From a virus (lineage: Duplodnaviria > Heunggongvirae > Uroviricota > Caudoviricetes): DNA of 21,913 nt. The translations under genes and the position numbers were made by a program. Positions 1,886 through 21,913 of this stretch are shown in pieces (position 1 is the first letter of the stretch; each line of letters opens with the position of its first letter). Under the pieces are notes generated by a model, which was not told where the DNA came from, searched no databases, and worked only from the letters and a program-made list of their open reading frames with translations. The stretch is from IMG/VR virus record IMGVR_UViG_2675903253_000001; one strand, 5' to 3'.

Positions 1886-5566
<3,681 letters not shown>

Positions 5567-5586
<20 letters not shown>

Positions 5587-6886
5587 TCTCCCGCATATTG
5601 CCAGCATGGCTTTTAATGAGCCGCTGATGCTTGAACCCGCCTATGCGCGGGTTTTCTTTTGTGCGCTTGCAGGCCAGCTTGGGATCAGCTGCCTGACGGA
5701 TGCAGTATCCGGCGACAGCCTGACTGCCGGAGAGGCACCCGCGGCGCTGGCGTTATCCGGTGATGATGACGGACCACGACAGGCCCGCAGTTATCAGGTA
5801 ATGAACGGCATCGCCGTGCTGCCGGTGTCCGGCACGCTGGTCAGCCGGACGCGGGCGCTGCAGCCGTACTCGGGGATGACCGGTTACAACGGCATTATCG
5901 CCCGTCTGCAACAGGCTGCCAGCGACCCGATGGTGGACGGCATTCTGCTCGATATGGACACACCGGGCGGAATGGTGGCGGGAGCATTTGACTGCGCTGA
6001 CATCATCGCCCGTGTGCGTGACATAAAGCCGGTATGGGCGCTGGCCAATGACATGAACTGCAGCGCAGGTCAGCTGCTTGCCAGTGCCGCCTCCCGGCGT
6101 CTGGTCACGCAGACCGCCCGGACAGGCTCCATCGGCGTCATGATGGCTCACAGTAATTACGGCGCTGCACTGGAGAAACAGGGCGTGGAAATCACGCTGA
6201 TTTACAGCGGCAGCCATAAGGTGGATGGCAACCCCTACAGCCATCTACCGGATGATGTCCGGGAAACATTGCAGTCCCGGATGGATGCAACCCGCCGGAT
6301 GTTTGCACAGAAGGTGTCGGCATATACCGGCCTGTCCGTGCAGGCTGTGCTGGATACCGAGGCTGCAGTGTACAGCGGTCAGGAGGCCATTGATGCCGGA
6401 CTGGCTGATGAACTTGTTAACAGTACCGATGCGATCACCGTCATGCGTGATGCACTGGATGCACGTAAATCCCGTCTCTCAGGAGGGCGAATGACCAAAG
6501 AGACTCAATCAACAACTGTTTCAGCCACTGCTTCGCAGGCTGACGTTACTGGCGTGGTGCAAGCGACGGAGGGCGAGAACGCCAGCGCGGCGCAGCCGGA
6601 CGTGAACGCGCAGATCACCGCAGCGGTTGCGGCAGAAAACAGTCGCATTATGGGGATCCTCAACTGTGAGGAGGCTCACGGACGCGAAGAACAGGCACGC
6701 GTGCTGGCCGAAACCCCCGGTATGACCGTGGAAACGGCCCGCCGTATTCTGGCCGCAGCACCACAGAGTGCACAGACGCGCAGTGACACTGCGCTGGATC
6801 GTCTGATGCAGGGGGCACCGGCACCGCTGGCTGCAGGTAACCCGGCATCTGATGCCGTTAACGATTTGCTGAACACACCAGTGTAA
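5567..6886 (+). CDS. C: Prohead protease/scaffold fusion gpC (439 aa), GTG start
   Basis: The six-frame ORF 5432..6886 is over-extended. The conserved lambda C N-terminus (V/M)TAELRNLPHIASMAFNEPLM begins at GTG 5567, preceded by gaggaggagaag (Shine-Dalgarno-like). Overlaps the end of B by 20 nt as in lambda. S49-type (ClpP/SppA-like) protease family by established knowledge. Confidence 0.9.
6281..6886 (+). CDS. nu3: Scaffolding protein gpNu3, in-frame internal start within C
   Basis: ATG at 6281 in the C reading frame (...SRMDATRRMFAQ...), sharing the C stop codon, at the position of the nested lambda Nu3 initiation. Established lambda biology; the internal start itself is not independently provable from sequence. 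Confidence 0.7.
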   Translation: MDATRRMFAQKVSAYTGLSVQAVLDTEAAVYSGQEAIDAGLADELVNSTDAITVMRDALDARKSRLSGGRMTKETQSTTVSATASQADVTGVVQATEGENASAAQPDVNAQITAAVAAENSRIMGILNCEEAHGREEQARVLAETPGMTVETARRILAAAPQSAQTRSDTALDRLMQGAPAPLAAGNPASDAVNDLLNTPV

Positions 6887-6895
6887 GGGATGTTT

Positions 6896-7228
6896 ATGAC
6901 GAGCAAAGAAACCTTTACCCATTACCAGCCGCTGGGCAATAGTGACCCGGCTCATACCGCAACCGCGCCCGGCGGATTGAGTGCGAAAGCGCCTGCAATG
7001 ACCCCGCTGATGCTGGACACCTCCACCCGTAAGCTGGTTGCGTGGGATGGCACCACCGACGGTGCTGCCGTTGGCATTCTTGCGGTTGCTGCTGACCAGA
7101 CCAGCACCACACTGACGTTCTACAAGTCCGGCACGTTCCGTTATGAGGATGTGCTCTGGCCGGAGGCTGCCAGCGACGAGACGAAAAAACGGACCGTGTT
7201 TGCCGGAACGGCAATCAGCATCGTTTAA
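6896..7228 (+). CDS. D: Head decoration protein gpD (110 aa)
   Basis: ORF 6890..7228. Lambda D begins [27 protein letters not shown], which corresponds to the second ATG at 6896. Sequence is near-identical to lambda D from memory. Confidence 0.92.
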
Positions 7229-7244
7229 CTTTACCCTTCATCAC

Positions 7245-16654: not shown

Positions 16655-19600
16655 ATGGGTAAAGGCAGCAGTAAGGGGCATACCCCGCGCGAAGCGAAGG
16701 ACAACCTGAAGTCCACGCAGCTGCTGAGTGTGATCGATGCCATCAGNGAAGGGCCGGTTGAAGGTCCGGTGGATGGATTAAAAAGCGTGCTGCTGAACAG
16801 TACGCCGGTGCTGGACAGTGAGGGGAATACCAACATCTCCGGCGTCACGGTGGTGTTCCGGGCAGGTGAGCAGGAGCAGTCACCGCCGGAGGGATTTGAA
16901 TCCTCCGGCTCCGAGACGGTGCTGGGTACGGAAGTGAAATATGACACGCCGATCACCCGGACCATCACGTCGGCAAACATTGACCGACTGCGTTTTACCT
17001 TCGGTGTACAGGCACTGGTGGAAACCACCTCAAAGGGAGACAGGAATCCGTCTGAAGTTCGCCTGCTGGTTCAGATACAGCGTAACGGTGGCTGGGTGAC
17101 GGAAAAAGACATCACCATTAAGGGCAAAACCACCTCGCAGTATCTGGCCTCGGTGGTGGTGGATAACCTGCCGCCGCGCCCGTTTAATATCCGGATGCGC
17201 AGAATGACGCCGGACAGCACCACAGACCAGCTGCAGAACAAAACGCTCTGGTCGTCATACACCGAAATCATCGATGTGAAACAGTGCTACCCGAACACTG
17301 CACTGGTCGGCGTACAGGTGGACTCGGAGCAGTTCGGCAGCCAGCAGGTGAGTCGTAATTATCATCTTCGCGGGCGCATTCTGCAGGTGCCGTCGAACTA
17401 TAATCCGCAGACGCGGCAATACAGCGGTATCTGGGACGGAACGTTAAAACCGGCATACAGCAACAACATGGCCTGGTGTCTGTGGGATATGCTGACCCAT
17501 CCGCGCTATGGCATGGGGAAACGTCTTGGTGCGGCAGATGTGGATAAATGGGCGCTGTATGTCATCGGCCAGTACTGTGACCAGTCGGTGCCGGACGGCT
17601 TTGGCAGCACGGAGCCGCGCATCACCTGTAATGCCTGGCTGACCACACAGCGCAAGGCGTGGGATGTGCTCAGTGATTTCTGCTCGGCGATGCGCTGTAT
17701 GCCGGTATGGAACGGGCAGACGCTGACGTTCGTGCAGGACCGACAGTCGGATAAGGTGTGGGCCTATAACCGCAGTAATGTGGTGATGCCGGATGATGGC
17801 GCGCCGTTCCGCTACAGTTTCAGCGCCCTGAAAGACCGCCATAATGCCGTTGAGGTGAACTGGATTGACCCGGATAACGGCTGGGAGACGGCGACAGAGC
17901 TTGTGGAGGATACGCAGGCCATTGTCCGTTACGGTCGTAACGTCACGAAGATGGATGCCTTTGGCTGTACCAGCCGGGGGCAGGCACACCGCGCCGGGCT
18001 GTGGCTGATTAAAACGGAACTGCTGGAGACGCAGACCGTGGATTTCAGCGTGGGTGCTGAAGGGCTTCGTCATGTACCGGGCGATGTCATTGAAATCTGC
18101 GATGATGACTATGCCGGTATCCGCACCGGCGGGCGCGTGCTGGCGGTGAACAGCCAGACCCGGACGCTGACGCTCGACCGTGAAATCACGCTGCCATCCT
18201 CCGGCACCACGCTGATAAGCCTGGTTGACGGGCAGGGGAATCCGGTCAGCGTGGAGGTCCAGTCCGTCACCGACGGCGTGAAGGTAAAAGTGAGCCGTGT
18301 TCCTGACGGTGTTGCTGAATACAGCGTGTGGGGGCTGAAGCTGCCGACGCTGCACCAGCGATTGTTCCGCTGCGTGAGTATCCGTGAGAACGACGACGGC
18401 ACGTATGCCATCACCGCCGTGCAGCATGTGCCGGAAAAAGAAGCCATCGTGGATAACGGGGCGCACTTTGACGGCGACCAGAGCGGCACGGTGAATGGTG
18501 TCACGCCGCCAGCGGTGCAGCACCTGACTGCCGAAGTCACCGCAGACAGCGGGGAATATCAGGTGCTGGCGCGCTGGGACACGCCGAAGGTGGTGAAGGG
18601 CGTGAGCTTCCTGCTCCGTCTGACCGTAACAGCGGATGACGGCAGTGAGCGGCTGGTCAGCACGGCCCGGACGACGGAAACCACNTGGGAGACGGCGACA
18701 GAGCTTGTGGAGGATACGCAGGCCATTGCCCGTTACGGTCGTAACGTCACGAAGATGGATGCTTTTGGCTGTACCAGCCGGGGGCAGGCACACCGCGCCG
18801 GGCTGTGGCTGATTAAAACAGAACTGCTGGAAACGCAGACCGTGGACTTCAGCGTGGGCGCAGAAGGGCTTCGCCATGTGCCGGGCGATGTCATTGAAAT
18901 CTGTGATGATGACTATGCGGGTATCAGCATCGGCGGGCGCGTGCTGGCGGTAAACAGCCAGACCCGGACGCTGACGCTCGACCGTGAAATCACGCTGCCA
19001 TCCTCCGGTACCATGCTGATAAGCCTGGTTGACGGAAGTGGCAATCCGGTCAGCGTGGAGGTTCAGTCCGTCACCGACGGCGTGAAGGTGAAAGTGAGCC
19101 GTGTTCCTGNNNNNNNNNNNNNNNNNNNNNNNNNNNNNNNNNNNNNNNNNNNNNNNNNNNNNNNNNNNNNNNNNNNNNNNNNNNNNNNNNNNNNNNNNNN
19201 NNNNNNNNNNNNNNNNNNNNNNNNNNNNNNNNNNNNNNNNNNNNNNNNNNNNNNNNNNNNNNNNNNNNNNNNNNNNNNNNNNNNNNNNNNNNNNNNNNNN
19301 NNNNNNNNNNNNNNNNNNNNNNNNNNNNNNNNNNNNNNNNNNNNNNNNNNNNNNNNNNNNNNNNNNNNNNNNNNNNNNNNNNNNNNNNNNNNNNNNNNNN
19401 NNNNNNNNNNNNNNNNNNNNNNNNNNNNNNNNNNNNNNNNNNNNNNNNNNNNNNNNNNNNNNNNNNNNNNNNNNNNNNNNNNNNNNNNNNNNGAAATCAC
19501 GCTGCCATCCTCCGGTACCATGCTGATAAGCCTGGTTGACGGAAGTGGCAATCCGGTCAGCGTGGAGGTTCAGTCCGTCACCGACGGCGTGAAGGTGAAA

Positions 19601-21463
19601 GTGAGCCGTGTTCCTGACGGCGTTGCTGAATACAGCGTGTGGGGGCTGAAGCTGCCGACGTTGCGCCAGCGCCTGTTCCGCTGTGTGAGTATCCGTGAGA
19701 ACGATGACGGCACGTATGCCATCACTGCCGTGCAGCATGTACCGGAAAAAGAAGCCATCGTGGATAACGGGGCGCACTTTGACGGCGACCAGAGCGGCAC
19801 GGTGAATGGTGTCACGCCGCCAGCGGTGCAGCACCTGACTGCCGAAGTCACCGCAGACAGCGGGGAATATCAGGTGCTGGCGCGCTGGGACACGCCGAAG
19901 GTGGTGAAGGGGGTGAGCTTTATGCTTCGCCTGACCGTGGCAGCGGATGACGGCAGTGAGCGGCTGGTCAGCACGGCCCGGACGACGGAAACCACATACC
20001 GCTTCACGCAACTGGCGCTGGGACGGTACACGCTGACAGTCCGGGCGGTAAATGCCTGGGGACAGCAGGGCGATCCGGCGTCGGTATCGTTCCGGATTGC
20101 CGCACCGGCAGCGCTGTCGCGGATTGAGCTGACGCCGGGCTATTTTCAGATAACCGCCACGCCGCATCTTGCGGTTTATGATCCGACGGTACAGTTTGAG
20201 TTCTGGTTCTCGGAAAAGCGGATTGCGGATATCAGGCAGGTTGAAACCACAGCACGCTATCTTGGCACGGCGCTGTACTGGATAGCCGCCAGTATCAATA
20301 TCAAACCGGGCCATGATTATTACTTTTATATCCGCAGTGTGAACACCGTTGGCAAATCGGCATTCGTGGAGGCTGTTGGTCAGCCGAGTGATGATGCATC
20401 CGGTTATCTGGATTTTTTCAAAGGCGAGATAGGGAAAACCCATCTGGCTCAGGAGCTGTGGACGCAGATTGATAACGGTCAGCTTGCGCCTGACCTGGCT
20501 GAAATCAGGACGTCCATTACGGATGTCAGCAATGAAATCACGCAGACCGTCAATAAGAAACTGGAAGACCAGAGTGCGGCAATTCAGCAGATACAGAAGG
20601 TTCAGGTTGATACAAATAATAACCTGAACAGCATGTGGGCTGTGAAGCTGCAGCAGATGCAGGACGGACGCCTTTATATCGCGGGTATTGGTGCCGGTAT
20701 TGAGAACACCCCTGACGGCATGCAGAGTCAGGTGCTGCTGGCGGCGGACAGGATTGCGATGGTTAATCCTGCGAATGGCAACACAAAACCGATGTTTGTT
20801 GGTCAGGGCGATCAGATATTCATGAACGACGTGTTCCTGAAACGCCTGACGGCCCCCACCATTACCAGCGGTGGAAATCCATCGGCATTTTCCCTGACTC
20901 CGGACGGAAAGCTGACCGCTAAAAATGCGGATATCAGTGGCAGTGTGAATGCGAACGCCGGGACGCTCAACAATGTCACGGTAAATGAAAACTGTACGAT
21001 TAAGGGCATGCTGGAGGCGACTCAGGTCAGAGGTGACTTCGTTAAAGCTGTATCCAAATCATTTCCGAAACAGGCTGGTACGTGGGGTAACACGGAAACA
21101 CCAAACGGGACGGTTACAGTCACCATAAGCGATGATCATAACTTTGACCGCCAGATTATTATTCCGCCCATTATTTTTAACGGTATAGCGTATGACGATC
21201 CGGGGAGCGGAAATAACCCAGGAGGCACGCGATACACGGGTTATGGTTTTGAAGTTCGCAAAAACGGCGTATTAATCGCATCCAGAGAAACTAAAGGTGC
21301 CATTCCCGGTAGTTACAGTGCAGTTATTGATATGCCTAGTGGTGGTGGTAGCGTCACTCTGGAGTTTAAGATTTTCCAGAAAGGCAATCAGGGGGCAGGC
21401 AATATCACCGACTGTACGGTGATTGTGACCAAAAAAGCGGCTTCCGGCATCAGTATTCGTTGA
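16655..21463 (+). CDS. J: Central tail fiber/host specificity protein gpJ; the apparent 1602-codon ORF includes an in-frame duplicated segment and a 383-N gap, so the true length is uncertain
   Basis: ORF 16655..21463 starts [30 protein letters not shown], the lambda J N-terminus. Most of the body matches lambda J. Internal tandem repeat and N-run are listed separately. The C-terminal ~350 aa diverge from my recollection of lambda J. Ambiguous bases at 16747 and 18685. Confidence 0.85.
17882..19616 (+). repeat. In-frame tandem duplication within J: copy 1 at 17882-18685, copy 2 starting at 18686 (period 804 bp = 268 codons), interrupted by the N-gap; 19493-19616 is identical to 18986-19109
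   Basis: Direct comparison of sequence: tgggagacggcgacagagcttgtggaggatacgcaggcc... recurs at 17882 and 18686, and gaaatcacgctgccatcctccgg... at 18182, 18986 and 19493. The copies differ at scattered SNPs (for example [46 protein letters not shown]). The junction base at 18685 is n. Confidence 0.8.
19110..19492. other. Assembly gap (383 consecutive N) inside J
   Basis: Run of n from 19110 to 19492. The 124 bp on each side (18986-19109 and 19493-19616) are identical, typical of an unresolved repeat or scaffold join. Confidence 0.95.
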
Positions 21464-21485
21464 AATATTTATAACCCCAATAAAT

Positions 21486-21512
21486 GGCGTCAGGAATGAC
21501 GCCTTTTTTATT
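21486..21512 (+). terminator. Candidate Rho-independent terminator downstream of J (ggcgtca-ggaa-tgacgcc followed by ttttttatt)
   Basis: Perfect 7-bp inverted repeat at 21486-21503 with a 4-nt loop and a T-run at 21504-21512, 23 nt after the J stop codon. Confidence 0.65.
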
Positions 21513-21533
21513 GCAGAAAAGCGAGAGGTAATT

Positions 21534-21913
21534 ATGCGTAAAGTTTGTGCAGCCATTTTGTCCGCAGCCATTTGCCTGGCCGTATCCGGTGCGCCTGCAT
21601 GGGCGTCTGAACATCAGTCCACGCTGAGCGCGGGGTATCTTCATGCCCGGACCAACGTTCCCGGCAGTGATGATCTGAACGGGATTAACGTGAAATACCG
21701 TTATGAGTTTACGGATACGCTGGGGCTGGTGACGTCATTCAGCTATGCAGGAGACAAGAATCGCCAGCTGACCCGTTACAGCGATACCCGCTGGCATGAA
21801 GATTCCGTGCGTAACCGCTGGTTCAGCGTGATGGCGGGGCCGTCTGTGCGCGTGAATGAATGGTTCAGCGCGTATGCGATGGCGGGTGTGGCTTACAGCC
21901 GTGTGTCGACTTT
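21534..21913 (+). CDS. lom: Lom-family (Ail/Lom/OmpX-like) outer membrane protein, 5' portion; runs off the window end
   Basis: ATG at 21534 preceded by gagaggt. Translation MRKVCAAILSAAICLAVSGAPAWA|SEHQSTLSAGYLHARTNVPGSDDLNGINVKYRYEFTDTLGLVTSFSYAG... has a signal peptide with AxA cleavage motif and alternating beta-strand pattern. GINVKYRYE, VMAGP and SAYAMAGVA(Y/H)SR are shared with lambda Lom as I recall it. Position immediately after J is as in lambda. Not in the ORF track because no stop codon lies within the window. Confidence 0.85.
   Translation, partial: MRKVCAAILSAAICLAVSGAPAWASEHQSTLSAGYLHARTNVPGSDDLNGINVKYRYEFTDTLGLVTSFSYAGDKNRQLTRYSDTRWHEDSVRNRWFSVMAGPSVRVNEWFSAYAMAGVAYSRVST

Follow-up and report, generated by a model that had tools for sequence, protein, structure and literature searches.

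A probable natural mosaic at the 3' end of a lambda-like J gene: a phage-21-type shaft joined to a 434-type receptor-binding domain with OmpC as predicted receptor

The 3' end of gene J described here is very probably a natural recombinant, in which a lambda-like body is followed by a phage-21-type shaft and a 434-type receptor-binding domain, a combination that would retarget the virion to OmpC. The DNA analysed (the window) is a single strand of 21,913 nt from a Caudoviricetes virus, IMG/VR record IMGVR_UViG_2675903253_000001. A sequence-only reading of the same DNA had proposed that the receptor-recognition end of J was swapped. This is borne out, as the terminal domain belongs to an allele class other than that of lambda (37% identity) and is 95.5% identical to that of phage 434. 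The term “domain swap” holds for the exchange itself, but what was exchanged is a homologous allele that shares its Pfam family and fold with the lambda domain, not an unrelated domain. Nor is there one divergent end: two modules, exchanged independently, are separated by a conserved block.

The gene containing this mosaic is organized in the window as follows:

16655..21463, + strand: gene J (tip attachment protein, central tail fibre) as scaffolded, from the ORF list, translation, BLASTP and Pfam
18685..19492, no strand: scaffold artefact within J, made up of one N (18685), a J fragment that starts anew (18686-19109) and a run of 383 N (19110-19492)
19493..20380, + strand: lambda-like part of J, comprising the end of the hub domains, FNIII-1 and FNIII-2, from protein and DNA identity and the Pfam families Ig_J and Ig_J_second

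The position of J in the late operon is that of lambda, after H-M-L-K-I and before lom. The upstream ORF sizes agree with lambda H (853 aa), M (109), L (232), K and I (223), and the 16.6 kb upstream of J are 96.6% identical to lambda. The ORF translation of the J frame is 1602 aa long. This length is a scaffold artefact caused by N runs and duplicated segments, and the real protein is expected to have about 1165 aa; the J protein of phi458 (1165 aa) is 97-98% identical to the window J over the whole protein. Against lambda J (reference NC_001416), BLASTP returns three collinear or overlapping pieces: aa 1-705 match lambda 1-699 (94% identity in this N-terminal part), aa 678-818 match lambda 410-550, and aa 947-1601 match lambda 510-1131. 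The re-started fragment corresponds to lambda aa 410-550 and is 94% identical to window positions 17871-18305, while the 124 nt ahead of the N gap recur exactly after it (19493-19616). A further N lies at 16747. The linkage of the J 3' end to the upstream late genes is by scaffolding alone, across gaps.

In the clean C-terminal 656 aa of J, three Pfam families score above their cut-offs, namely PF24421 Ig_J (146 bits), PF24489 Ig_J_second (132 bits) and PF09327 Phage_Tail_Tip (108 bits). The full lambda-type J domain set is present: hub, two Ig/FNIII domains, tail-tip fibre region and C-terminal receptor-binding domain. Over 19493-20425, the protein is 95.5% identical to lambda, 95.8% to 434 and 96.8% to phage 21, and the DNA over 19493-20392 is 94-96% identical to all three alike. 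J had been read as close to lambda J and then divergent, and the alignment agrees, with 94-98% identity until lambda residue ~815-820 (nt ~20381-20425). The first differences from lambda put QP in place of RA at nt ~20381, right after ...SAFVEAVG, and divergence starts at ...DFFKG, at nt 20426, which is lambda residue 821.

The first exchanged module begins here (domain names for J after Ge & Wang 2024, PMC11101478):

20381..20842, + strand: module 1, phage-21-type alpha-helical shaft and upper central straight fibre, from identity, dN/dS and an AlphaFold model
20753..20848, + strand: homologue of lambda J 902-933 (HepS trigger peptide), from alignment to lambda J

This module is 28 residues longer than its lambda counterpart. 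Over 20426-20812 (129 aa), it is 97.7% identical to phage 21 J at the protein level, with no gap, and 96.9% at the DNA level; protein identity over this stretch reaches 100% to phi458 J, against just 36-37% for lambda and 434. The segment following the lambda-like part, 56 residues of which had been singled out earlier as different, is indeed so, with 36.4% identity to lambda over the 129 residues. Relative to phage 21, dN is 0.010 and dS 0.115 in the shaft. A single-sequence AlphaFold model of 20396-20860 places helices at residues 4-26 and 31-89, with a pLDDT of 71-90 over residues 31-80. It supports a mainly helical shaft, at a low overall model confidence. In a crude heptad scan, the shaft did not stand out clearly from that of lambda. 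The lambda J peptide 902-933 triggers the Gifsy-1 HepS abortive-infection nuclease (PMC13043305); its homologue in the window retains the equivalents of Q922 and F924, within a stretch of 12 residues, and may have the same HepS-triggering activity.

The similarity to phage 21 ends within a block of the fibre:

20843..20992, + strand: conserved block of the central straight fibre, common to all alleles compared, from protein identity and a 90-nt DNA profile

Protein identity over 20813-20992 is 91.7% to lambda, 88.3% to 434, 83.3% to phage 21 and 85.0% to phi330. The last ~200 residues of J had been described as divergent. Divergence is found, but its extent was overestimated: the divergent terminal domain comprises only the last ~156 residues, because this conserved block interrupts it. 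In the 90-nt DNA profile, identity to phage 21 falls from 0.96 to 0.76 at 20843, and identity to 434 climbs to 0.87-0.99 past 20933. As the similarity changes here from 21-type to 434-type, the block is likely the crossover zone. Being conserved in all alleles, it would have served as the site of homologous crossover joining the 21-type to the 434-type sequence. Lambda residue 964, the graft point of Brodel et al. 2024 for natural gpJ C-termini, lies in this block (PMC11338833). The J end thus offers a clean textbook case of modular exchange at a conserved linker inside one gene, and it is at this very linker that lambda particles have been engineered towards OmpC.

The second module extends from this block to the stop codon:

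20993..21463, + strand: module 2, 434-type linker and receptor-binding domain (156 aa) with the stop codon, a predicted OmpC binder, from identity, Pfam, AlphaFold and dN/dS

The coding residues of the domain (nt 20993-21460) have the 95.5% identity to 434 J at both the protein and the DNA level. Close identity to 434 runs from lambda residue ~974 to the end, which places the domain in the 434-type (h434) class. It falls outside the LamB-binding class of lambda, with 37.2% identity to lambda residues ~985-1132 (36.6% by tblastn) and several indels in loop regions; this value, over the terminal 156 residues, is clearly below the 90% identity to the lambda C-terminal domain above which the exchange was held not to exist. 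It also falls outside the class formed by A8, phi330 and phage 21, with 40.4% identity to phage 21 and 42.9% to each of phi330 and A8. Among phage records, these domain classes are discrete: 74 have at least 90% identity, none lies between 60 and 90%, and 169 are below 60%.

The domain matches PF12421 (Ig_GpJ_C) at 90.2 bits, the cut-off being 26.2, and gpJ chains in the PDB match it by sequence at E-values of 1e-90 to 1e-100. An AlphaFold model of the last 200 aa has a mean pLDDT of 75.9, and about 70-97 over the domain. The top four Foldseek matches in the PDB are 9wca, 8xck, 8xcj and 9wcb (E 2.5e-19 to 5e-17, probability 1.00). The model thus predicts the gpJ receptor-binding fold, a beta-sandwich at the fibre tip. 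Because the Pfam family and the fold are the same, with solved gpJ tips as the top matches, the event is an allele exchange and not the acquisition of an unrelated domain.

Two rival readings of the J end can be weighed at this point. The joining of 21-type and 434-type parts could be an assembly artefact combining different prophages, and the N runs and the duplicated segments (94% alike) upstream in the same gene would invite such an explanation, as J is often fragmented in assemblies. It has a very low probability, however, since 19493-21913, which holds the whole divergent J end, contains no N and the identical arrangement is found in the complete genomes of phi458, cdtI, mEp332 and ev243. 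In phi458, the match over 20426-20812 is complete and the domain is 96.8% identical (protein). Among the 80 best-matching viral contigs, 50 combine the 21-type shaft with the 434-type domain, three of them at 100% identity over all 425 query residues. The lambda-type shaft with the 434-type domain occurs in 29 of the 80 and the 21-type shaft with another domain in one; the shaft and domain modules reassort.

The DNA had been noted to become AT-richer, and the count of 22 G+C in the 60 nt at 21121-21180 is exact. Over 20426-21463, the G+C content is 0.499, compared with 0.587-0.594 in the remainder of J, and GC3 falls from 0.68 to 0.55 at the J end. The drop from 0.59 to 0.50 could be seen as a sign that the J tip came in recently from a source other than Escherichia, a scenario we consider very improbable. 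In the J gene of lambda itself, the G+C content also declines at the 3' end, from 0.583 to 0.541, so the shift is partly a common property of the gene. E. coli genomes themselves average about 0.50, and the allele was found only in Escherichia, apart from a single contig attributed to Collinsella; the lower G+C content is therefore no evidence of foreign origin.

This distribution was seen in several collections. Of 5426 complete E. coli genomes, 2113 (39%) carry the domain allele, and the named matches come from E. coli, Shigella and E. albertii. A scan of 185,579 species-representative genomes retrieved three loci, all in Escherichia save one 1350-bp Collinsella MAG contig, which is probably mis-binned; three loci are too few for a distribution analysis and are consistent with a restriction to Escherichia. 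Many of the database matches to J are partial and lie on short contigs. The two modules recur together, at 95-100% identity, in phi458, cdtI, mEp332, long-tailed Stx phages and viral contigs.

OmpC, and not LamB, is the predicted receptor of the domain, because phage 434, and lambda carrying the 434 fibre gene, use OmpC. The receptor of 434 is OmpC, and its fibre gene moves lambda to this porin (PMC3509688; PMC11101478). The earlier suggestion of a receptor other than LamB is thereby supported, on the basis of sequence similarity to 434. Natural gpJ C-termini grafted at residue 964 suffice for the switch of lambda particles from LamB to OmpC (PMC11338833). Lambda can plate without its side fibres (PMC12617516), so an absolute requirement for OmpC points to J. 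In the sequenced lambda h434 hybrid, residues 55-681 of J resemble lambda and the change to 434-like sequence has come by residue 752; within this 434-like stretch, 434 departs densely from lambda only from residue 974. The classical hybrid also contains the lom and side-fibre genes of 434, for which reason the hybrid alone leaves either J or Stf as the protein that binds OmpC. In the available literature, no receptor determination was found for mEp332, the PhiR series (PV340xxx), phi458 or ev243, nor for cdtI, Ayreon, PhiR42_1 or the long-tailed Stx1/Stx2 phages; an indirect statement ranks OmpC second among the receptors used by the lambdoid mEp phages. A 2026 preprint on receptor prediction has Drexlerviridae-type GpJ as its scope and is of no help for lambda-type tips.

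A domain that still binds LamB, its divergence being due to drift or antigenic variation, would fit the fold and family shared with the lambda domain. It would also fit the fact that distinct domains can share a receptor, the 434 and A8/phi330 classes being ~42% identical and both linked to OmpC. We regard it as very unlikely given the low identity to the lambda domain, the indels in loop regions, and the nearly identical domain of 434, an OmpC-using phage whose fibre gene shifts lambda away from LamB.

A 434-like domain with a narrower or shifted specificity, restricted to certain OmpC variants or directed to a related porin such as OmpF, has a better though still small chance of being correct. 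The domain differs from 434 at 7 of its 156 residues (14 in the last 200), and several of these sites are polymorphic within the 434 class. The substitutions include N/D in a stretch of 11 residues and I/V, Q/H and G/R in KIFQKGNQG, the last of these sites also being seen as W within the class. Moreover, natural gpJ tips such as A8 and 1A2 differ in OmpC-variant specificity, and the engineered tip 1A2 recognises the OmpC of EDL933, not that of K-12 (PMC11338833). Against such a shift, dN/dS within the 434 class is ~0.10, in the domain and the adjacent fibre alike, and therefore indicates a conserved function in this class. The phages mEp332 and PhiR34_1 of the 434 class are recorded as propagated on K-12 MG1655 and phi458 on MC1061, like 434, and the exact last-200-residue sequence of the window occurs in four independent viral contigs, which makes it a standard variant. 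With the same dN/dS value, a rapidly evolving domain under diversifying selection within the 434 class was rejected.

With OmpC as the favoured receptor, the trimeric domain at the fibre tip would bind the trimeric porin, as its 95.5% identity to 434 suggests. Binding would then spread the distal loops, twist the straight fibre, flip the helical shaft and open the tail tip for DNA ejection. This opening sequence has been demonstrated for lambda with LamB, and A8 with OmpC has been solved in closed and open states; for the present J, it is proposed by homology. The allele exchange would in this way retarget an otherwise lambda-like virion to OmpC. More speculatively, and rather doubtfully, the pairing of the 21-type shaft and its 28 additional residues with a 434-type domain might alter the fibre reach or the triggering threshold, and the N/D, Q/H and G/R/W sites might tune the recognition of particular OmpC variants. 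If they did, natural selection of the tip towards OmpC types other than that of K-12 would be the result, in the form of an optimised allele. Because OmpC is polymorphic, the range of variants recognised could differ from that of 434.

The 434-type sequence continues beyond J:

21486..21509, + strand: intrinsic terminator-like hairpin (7 bp, 5 of them G-C) followed by TTTTTT, between J and lom, from sequence
21534..21913, + strand: 5' part of lom (Ail/Lom outer-membrane beta-barrel, with signal peptide), running past the window end, from translation and the Lom annotation in matching phages

Phage 434 has an annotated terminator in the matching place (18940-18966 of OL657226), and the terminator DNA is 85% identical to it. 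Over 21535-21913, the lom DNA is 95.8% identical to 434, compared with 55% to lambda, and by this similarity lom is assigned to the 434-type allele. The 434-type stretch as a whole extends from about 20930 to the window end, at 95-96% DNA identity, through the terminator and lom.

The J tip is real but ordinary, a natural mosaic that is already known and common in Escherichia prophages. There is nothing new in the tip, because its allele is that of the classical phage 434 and is so widespread in complete E. coli genomes, and it opens no new question. The gain is one of annotation: a 434-type J tip (predicted OmpC), a 21-type shaft and a 434-type lom, for which “J, lambda-like” is too loose.

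In comparison with named phages, 434 J (UMO75286, OL657226) has the same linker and domain, the same terminator and lom type, Pfam family and fold, and the same predicted receptor; its shaft is of the short lambda type, 37% identical to the window over 20426-20812, whereas that of the window is the longer 21-type. Phage 21 J (UMO75436, OL657228) shares the shaft and upper fibre, including the extra residues, but its domain is of the other class (40% to the window, 81% to A8), and the side tail fibre gene directly follows J, with no lom in between. The same module combination is found in phi458 (OP434518), cdtI (AB285204/NC_009514), mEp332, ev243, Ayreon, PhiR42_1 and long-tailed Stx1/Stx2 phages, which are 95-97% identical to the window in DNA over 20100-21913, lom included, with point differences only. 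Lambda J (NP_040600; 8XCK, 8XCJ, 8IYK) shares the body, the conserved block (92%) and the order of FNIII, helical shaft, straight fibre and receptor-binding domain; it differs in its shaft (36%, 28 residues shorter) and its domain (37%), and lambda binds LamB. The gpJ of A8 (9WCA; 9WCB with EDL933 OmpC) and phi330 J (PV189401) have the same fold and family and give the best sequence and fold match in the PDB. For A8, OmpC use is established by the structure; for phi330, a Keio knockout together with complementation shows it (PMC12502783). The A8 and phi330 domains are 98.7% identical to each other and form a separate allele class, since their identity to the window domain is just 42.9%.

The 3' end of gene J, which encodes the tip attachment protein, was compared by segment at the protein level with lambda (NC_001416), the classical phage 434 and 21 genomes (Feiss et al. 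2022), phi330 and phi458. A sequence-only reading had described a J that stays close to lambda and then diverges toward its C-terminus. The divergence is confirmed, as identity to lambda is 95.5% over 19493-20425, 36.4% over 20426-20812 and 37.2% over the last 156 residues (20993-21460). A conserved block at 20813-20992, 91.7% identical to lambda, divides the divergent region into two parts.

Protein identity of window J to five phages, by segment (window nt)
19493-20425 (FNIII etc.): lambda 95.5%, 434 95.8%, 21 96.8%, phi330 73.3%, phi458 97.4%
20426-20812 (shaft, upper fibre): lambda 36.4%, 434 37.2%, 21 97.7%, phi330 60.5%, phi458 100%
20813-20992 (conserved block): lambda 91.7%, 434 88.3%, 21 83.3%, phi330 85.0%, phi458 98.3%
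20993-21460 (linker, terminal domain): lambda 37.2%, 434 95.5%, 21 40.4%, phi330 42.9%, phi458 96.8%

The earliest differences from lambda J (QP for RA) lie at nt ~20381, right after ...SAFVEAVG, and the protein alignment places the onset of divergence at nt 20426. This break point, at lambda residue ~815-820, comes shortly after the second Ig/FNIII Pfam match and shortly before lambda residues 841-861, which have been assigned to the shaft (Ge & Wang 2024, PMC11101478). On that basis, it is placed at the FNIII-2/shaft junction.

The DNA profiles give the origin of both parts. Phage 21 matches the window at 97% between ~20393 and 20842, with sharp edges; 434 matches it at 95-96% from ~20930 to the J stop and onward to the window end, across two further features:

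21486-21509: terminator-like hairpin, intergenic, between J and lom
21534 to window end: lom, 434-type

Since these edges are sharp and the change from 21-type to 434-type falls within the conserved block, the end of J is a mosaic of two modules, both known alleles. The lom region DNA (window 21464-21913; 434 locus 4920-5588) is 96% identical to 434 and 55% to lambda. As the 434-type similarity runs past J through the terminator and lom, the receptor domain and lom are exchanged together as a unit.

The window covers the late operon, for head and tail, in a lambda-like prophage. Its first 16.6 kb are 96.6% identical to lambda and 97.6% to phage Chlobot, and the ORFs upstream of the region match lambda H, M, L, K and I in size. 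Two ORFs overlap at J:

16655-21463, plus strand: J as scaffolded, 1602 aa in the ORF list (lambda J, 1132 aa)
17444-20443, minus strand: 999-aa ORF of the mechanical ORF list, antisense to J, spanning the N run

The surplus length of J is an assembly artefact. It contains one N at 16747, another at 18685 and a 383-N run at 19110-19492; beyond the N at 18685, J starts over from lambda residue 410, and past the gap it picks up again at lambda residue 510. Because an unmerged 124-nt overlap across the gap is exact (18986-19109 = 19493-19616) and the restarted segment and the first copy agree at only 94% (18675-19109 vs 17871-18305), the scaffold interleaves two J alleles, ~94% identical. They probably stem from two lambdoid prophages, and at least two such prophages, with J genes ~94% identical, are probably present in the source genome. 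The 999-aa ORF, antisense to J and crossing the N run, was rejected as an artefact. The mosaic end itself sits in the N-free stretch 19493-21913, which continues back to lambda residue ~410 in one of the alleles; given the breaks in J, only the scaffold ties this stretch to the upstream late genes, so that the link is not proven.

A scaffolding origin of the mosaic is ruled out, since phi458, cdtI, mEp332 and others have the same arrangement and three of the best 80 viral contigs match all 425 query residues at 100%. Identity reaches 95-97% over the full 20100-21913 in phi458, cdtI, ev243, mEp332, PhiR42_1, Ayreon and several Stx2 phages. Among the best 80 viral contigs, 50 combine a 21-type shaft with a 434-type domain, 29 a lambda-type shaft with a 434-type domain, as in 434 itself, and one a 21-type shaft with another domain. 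Taken together with lambda and phage 21, these pairings show independent assortment of shaft and terminal domain across the conserved block. The domain alleles are discrete: 74 phage records reach ≥90% identity and 169 stay <60%, with nothing in the 60-90% range. One contig, IMGVR_UViG_2534681627_000017, joins a 21-type shaft (98%) to a terminal domain that shares only ~64% with the 434 type and may represent an additional allele class or a recombinant within the domain.

Of 5426 complete E. coli genomes, 2113 carry the 434-type domain DNA, with up to seven copies each. Named protein matches are from E. coli, Shigella sonnei and E. albertii, and among species-representative genomes the domain is confined to Escherichia, save one tiny contig that is probably mis-binned. 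This contig, JAGZNZ010000056.1 (1350 bp), was assigned to a Collinsella MAG; its J terminal domain shares 99% identity with that of the window, and it is almost certainly DNA of an E. coli prophage.

The AT-richer end that had been pointed out is present (22 G+C in the 60 nt at 21121-21180; 0.499 over 20426-21463 vs 0.59 upstream; 434-type block near 0.48-0.50), but lambda J also falls toward its 3' end, more weakly (0.583 to 0.541). The most fitting reading of the drop is that the G+C-rich lambda left arm normally contrasts in this way with its host-interaction end. As evidence of import from another host it was rejected, since lambda drops too and the allele is confined to Escherichia.

The last ~135 residues belong to Pfam PF12421 (Tip attachment protein J, C-terminal receptor-binding domain; score 90 bits, cut-off 26), and the C-terminal 355 match solved gpJ chains (E 1e-90 to 1e-100). 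An AlphaFold model of the last 200 residues, with 24 homologues as input (pLDDT roughly 70-97 over the terminal domain), has solved gpJ tips as its top four PDB matches:

9wca: A8 gpJ, closed
8xck: lambda gpJ, closed
8xcj: lambda gpJ with LamB bound
9wcb: A8 gpJ with EDL933 OmpC bound

The swap is thus an allele exchange inside one domain family; capture of an unrelated domain is ruled out by the PF12421 and fold matches. Over 20426-20812, window J has 28 residues more than lambda. A low-confidence single-sequence model of 20396-20860 predicts helices at residues 4-26 and 31-89, tentatively in agreement with a lengthened shaft; if fully helical, the extra residues would add an estimated ~4 nm, at 0.15 nm per residue.

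OmpC is the receptor of phage 434, and it takes the place of LamB when lambda has the 434 fibre gene (Chatterjee & Rothenberg 2012, PMC3509688; Ge & Wang 2024, PMC11101478). In the sequenced hybrid lambda h434 imm21, J is lambda-like at eleven diagnostic residues between 55 and 681 and 434-like from residue 752 at latest, with dense 434/lambda differences within the 434-derived part only from residue 974 on. This hybrid alone does not isolate J, because it also has the 434 lom and side-fibre genes. J as the OmpC determinant is supported by three points: the titre on ompC mutants is unaffected by lambda side fibres (PMC12617516); when the side fibre is an unrelated one, natural gpJ C-termini joined on at lambda residue 964 suffice to shift lambda particles from LamB to OmpC (Brodel et al. 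2024, PMC11338833); and dN/dS within the 434-type class is ~0.10, as expected for conserved function. On these grounds OmpC is predicted, with good confidence, to be the receptor of the window tip. A shifted OmpC-variant range is an alternative, A8 and 1A2 being gpJ tips that differ from each other in such range; binding of another porin is less likely. The OmpC prediction, from a domain 95.5% identical to that of an OmpC phage, supports the suggestion that a tip swap would confer a receptor other than LamB.

A second domain class is linked to this porin. The A8 and phi330 terminal domains are 98.7% identical, and that of phage 21 belongs with them (81% identical to A8). The need of phi330 for OmpC was shown by knockout and complementation (PMC12502783), and A8 gpJ was solved in complex with OmpC (9wcb). 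As the window domain is only about 42-43% identical to this class, two distinct gpJ domain classes, 434-type and A8-type, are linked to OmpC.

Two smaller features were observed. The homologue of lambda J 902-933 is conserved at 20753-20848 (32 residues), with the Q922 and F924 equivalents kept; the lambda peptide activates the Gifsy-1 HepS abortive-infection nuclease (PMC13043305), which would probably sense window J too. At 20882-20884, the GGNPSAF stretch of window J carries a Ser; Pro stands at this site in 37 of 38 distinct 434-type sequences. A sequencing error was rejected, since this Ser recurs in four viral contigs whose last 200 residues equal those of window J; it is a real minor variant.

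A 21-type shaft with a 434-type (h434) domain on a lambda-like J is already known. Phage 21 resembles the window in shaft and upper fibre (97.7%) but not in the terminal domain (40.4%), and is without lom after J (phage 21 locus 7177-7235), where the window has it. Phage 434, in contrast, shares the terminal domain (95.5%) but not the shaft (37.2% over 20426-20812). The J of phi458, of 1165 aa, is 97-98% identical to window J throughout.
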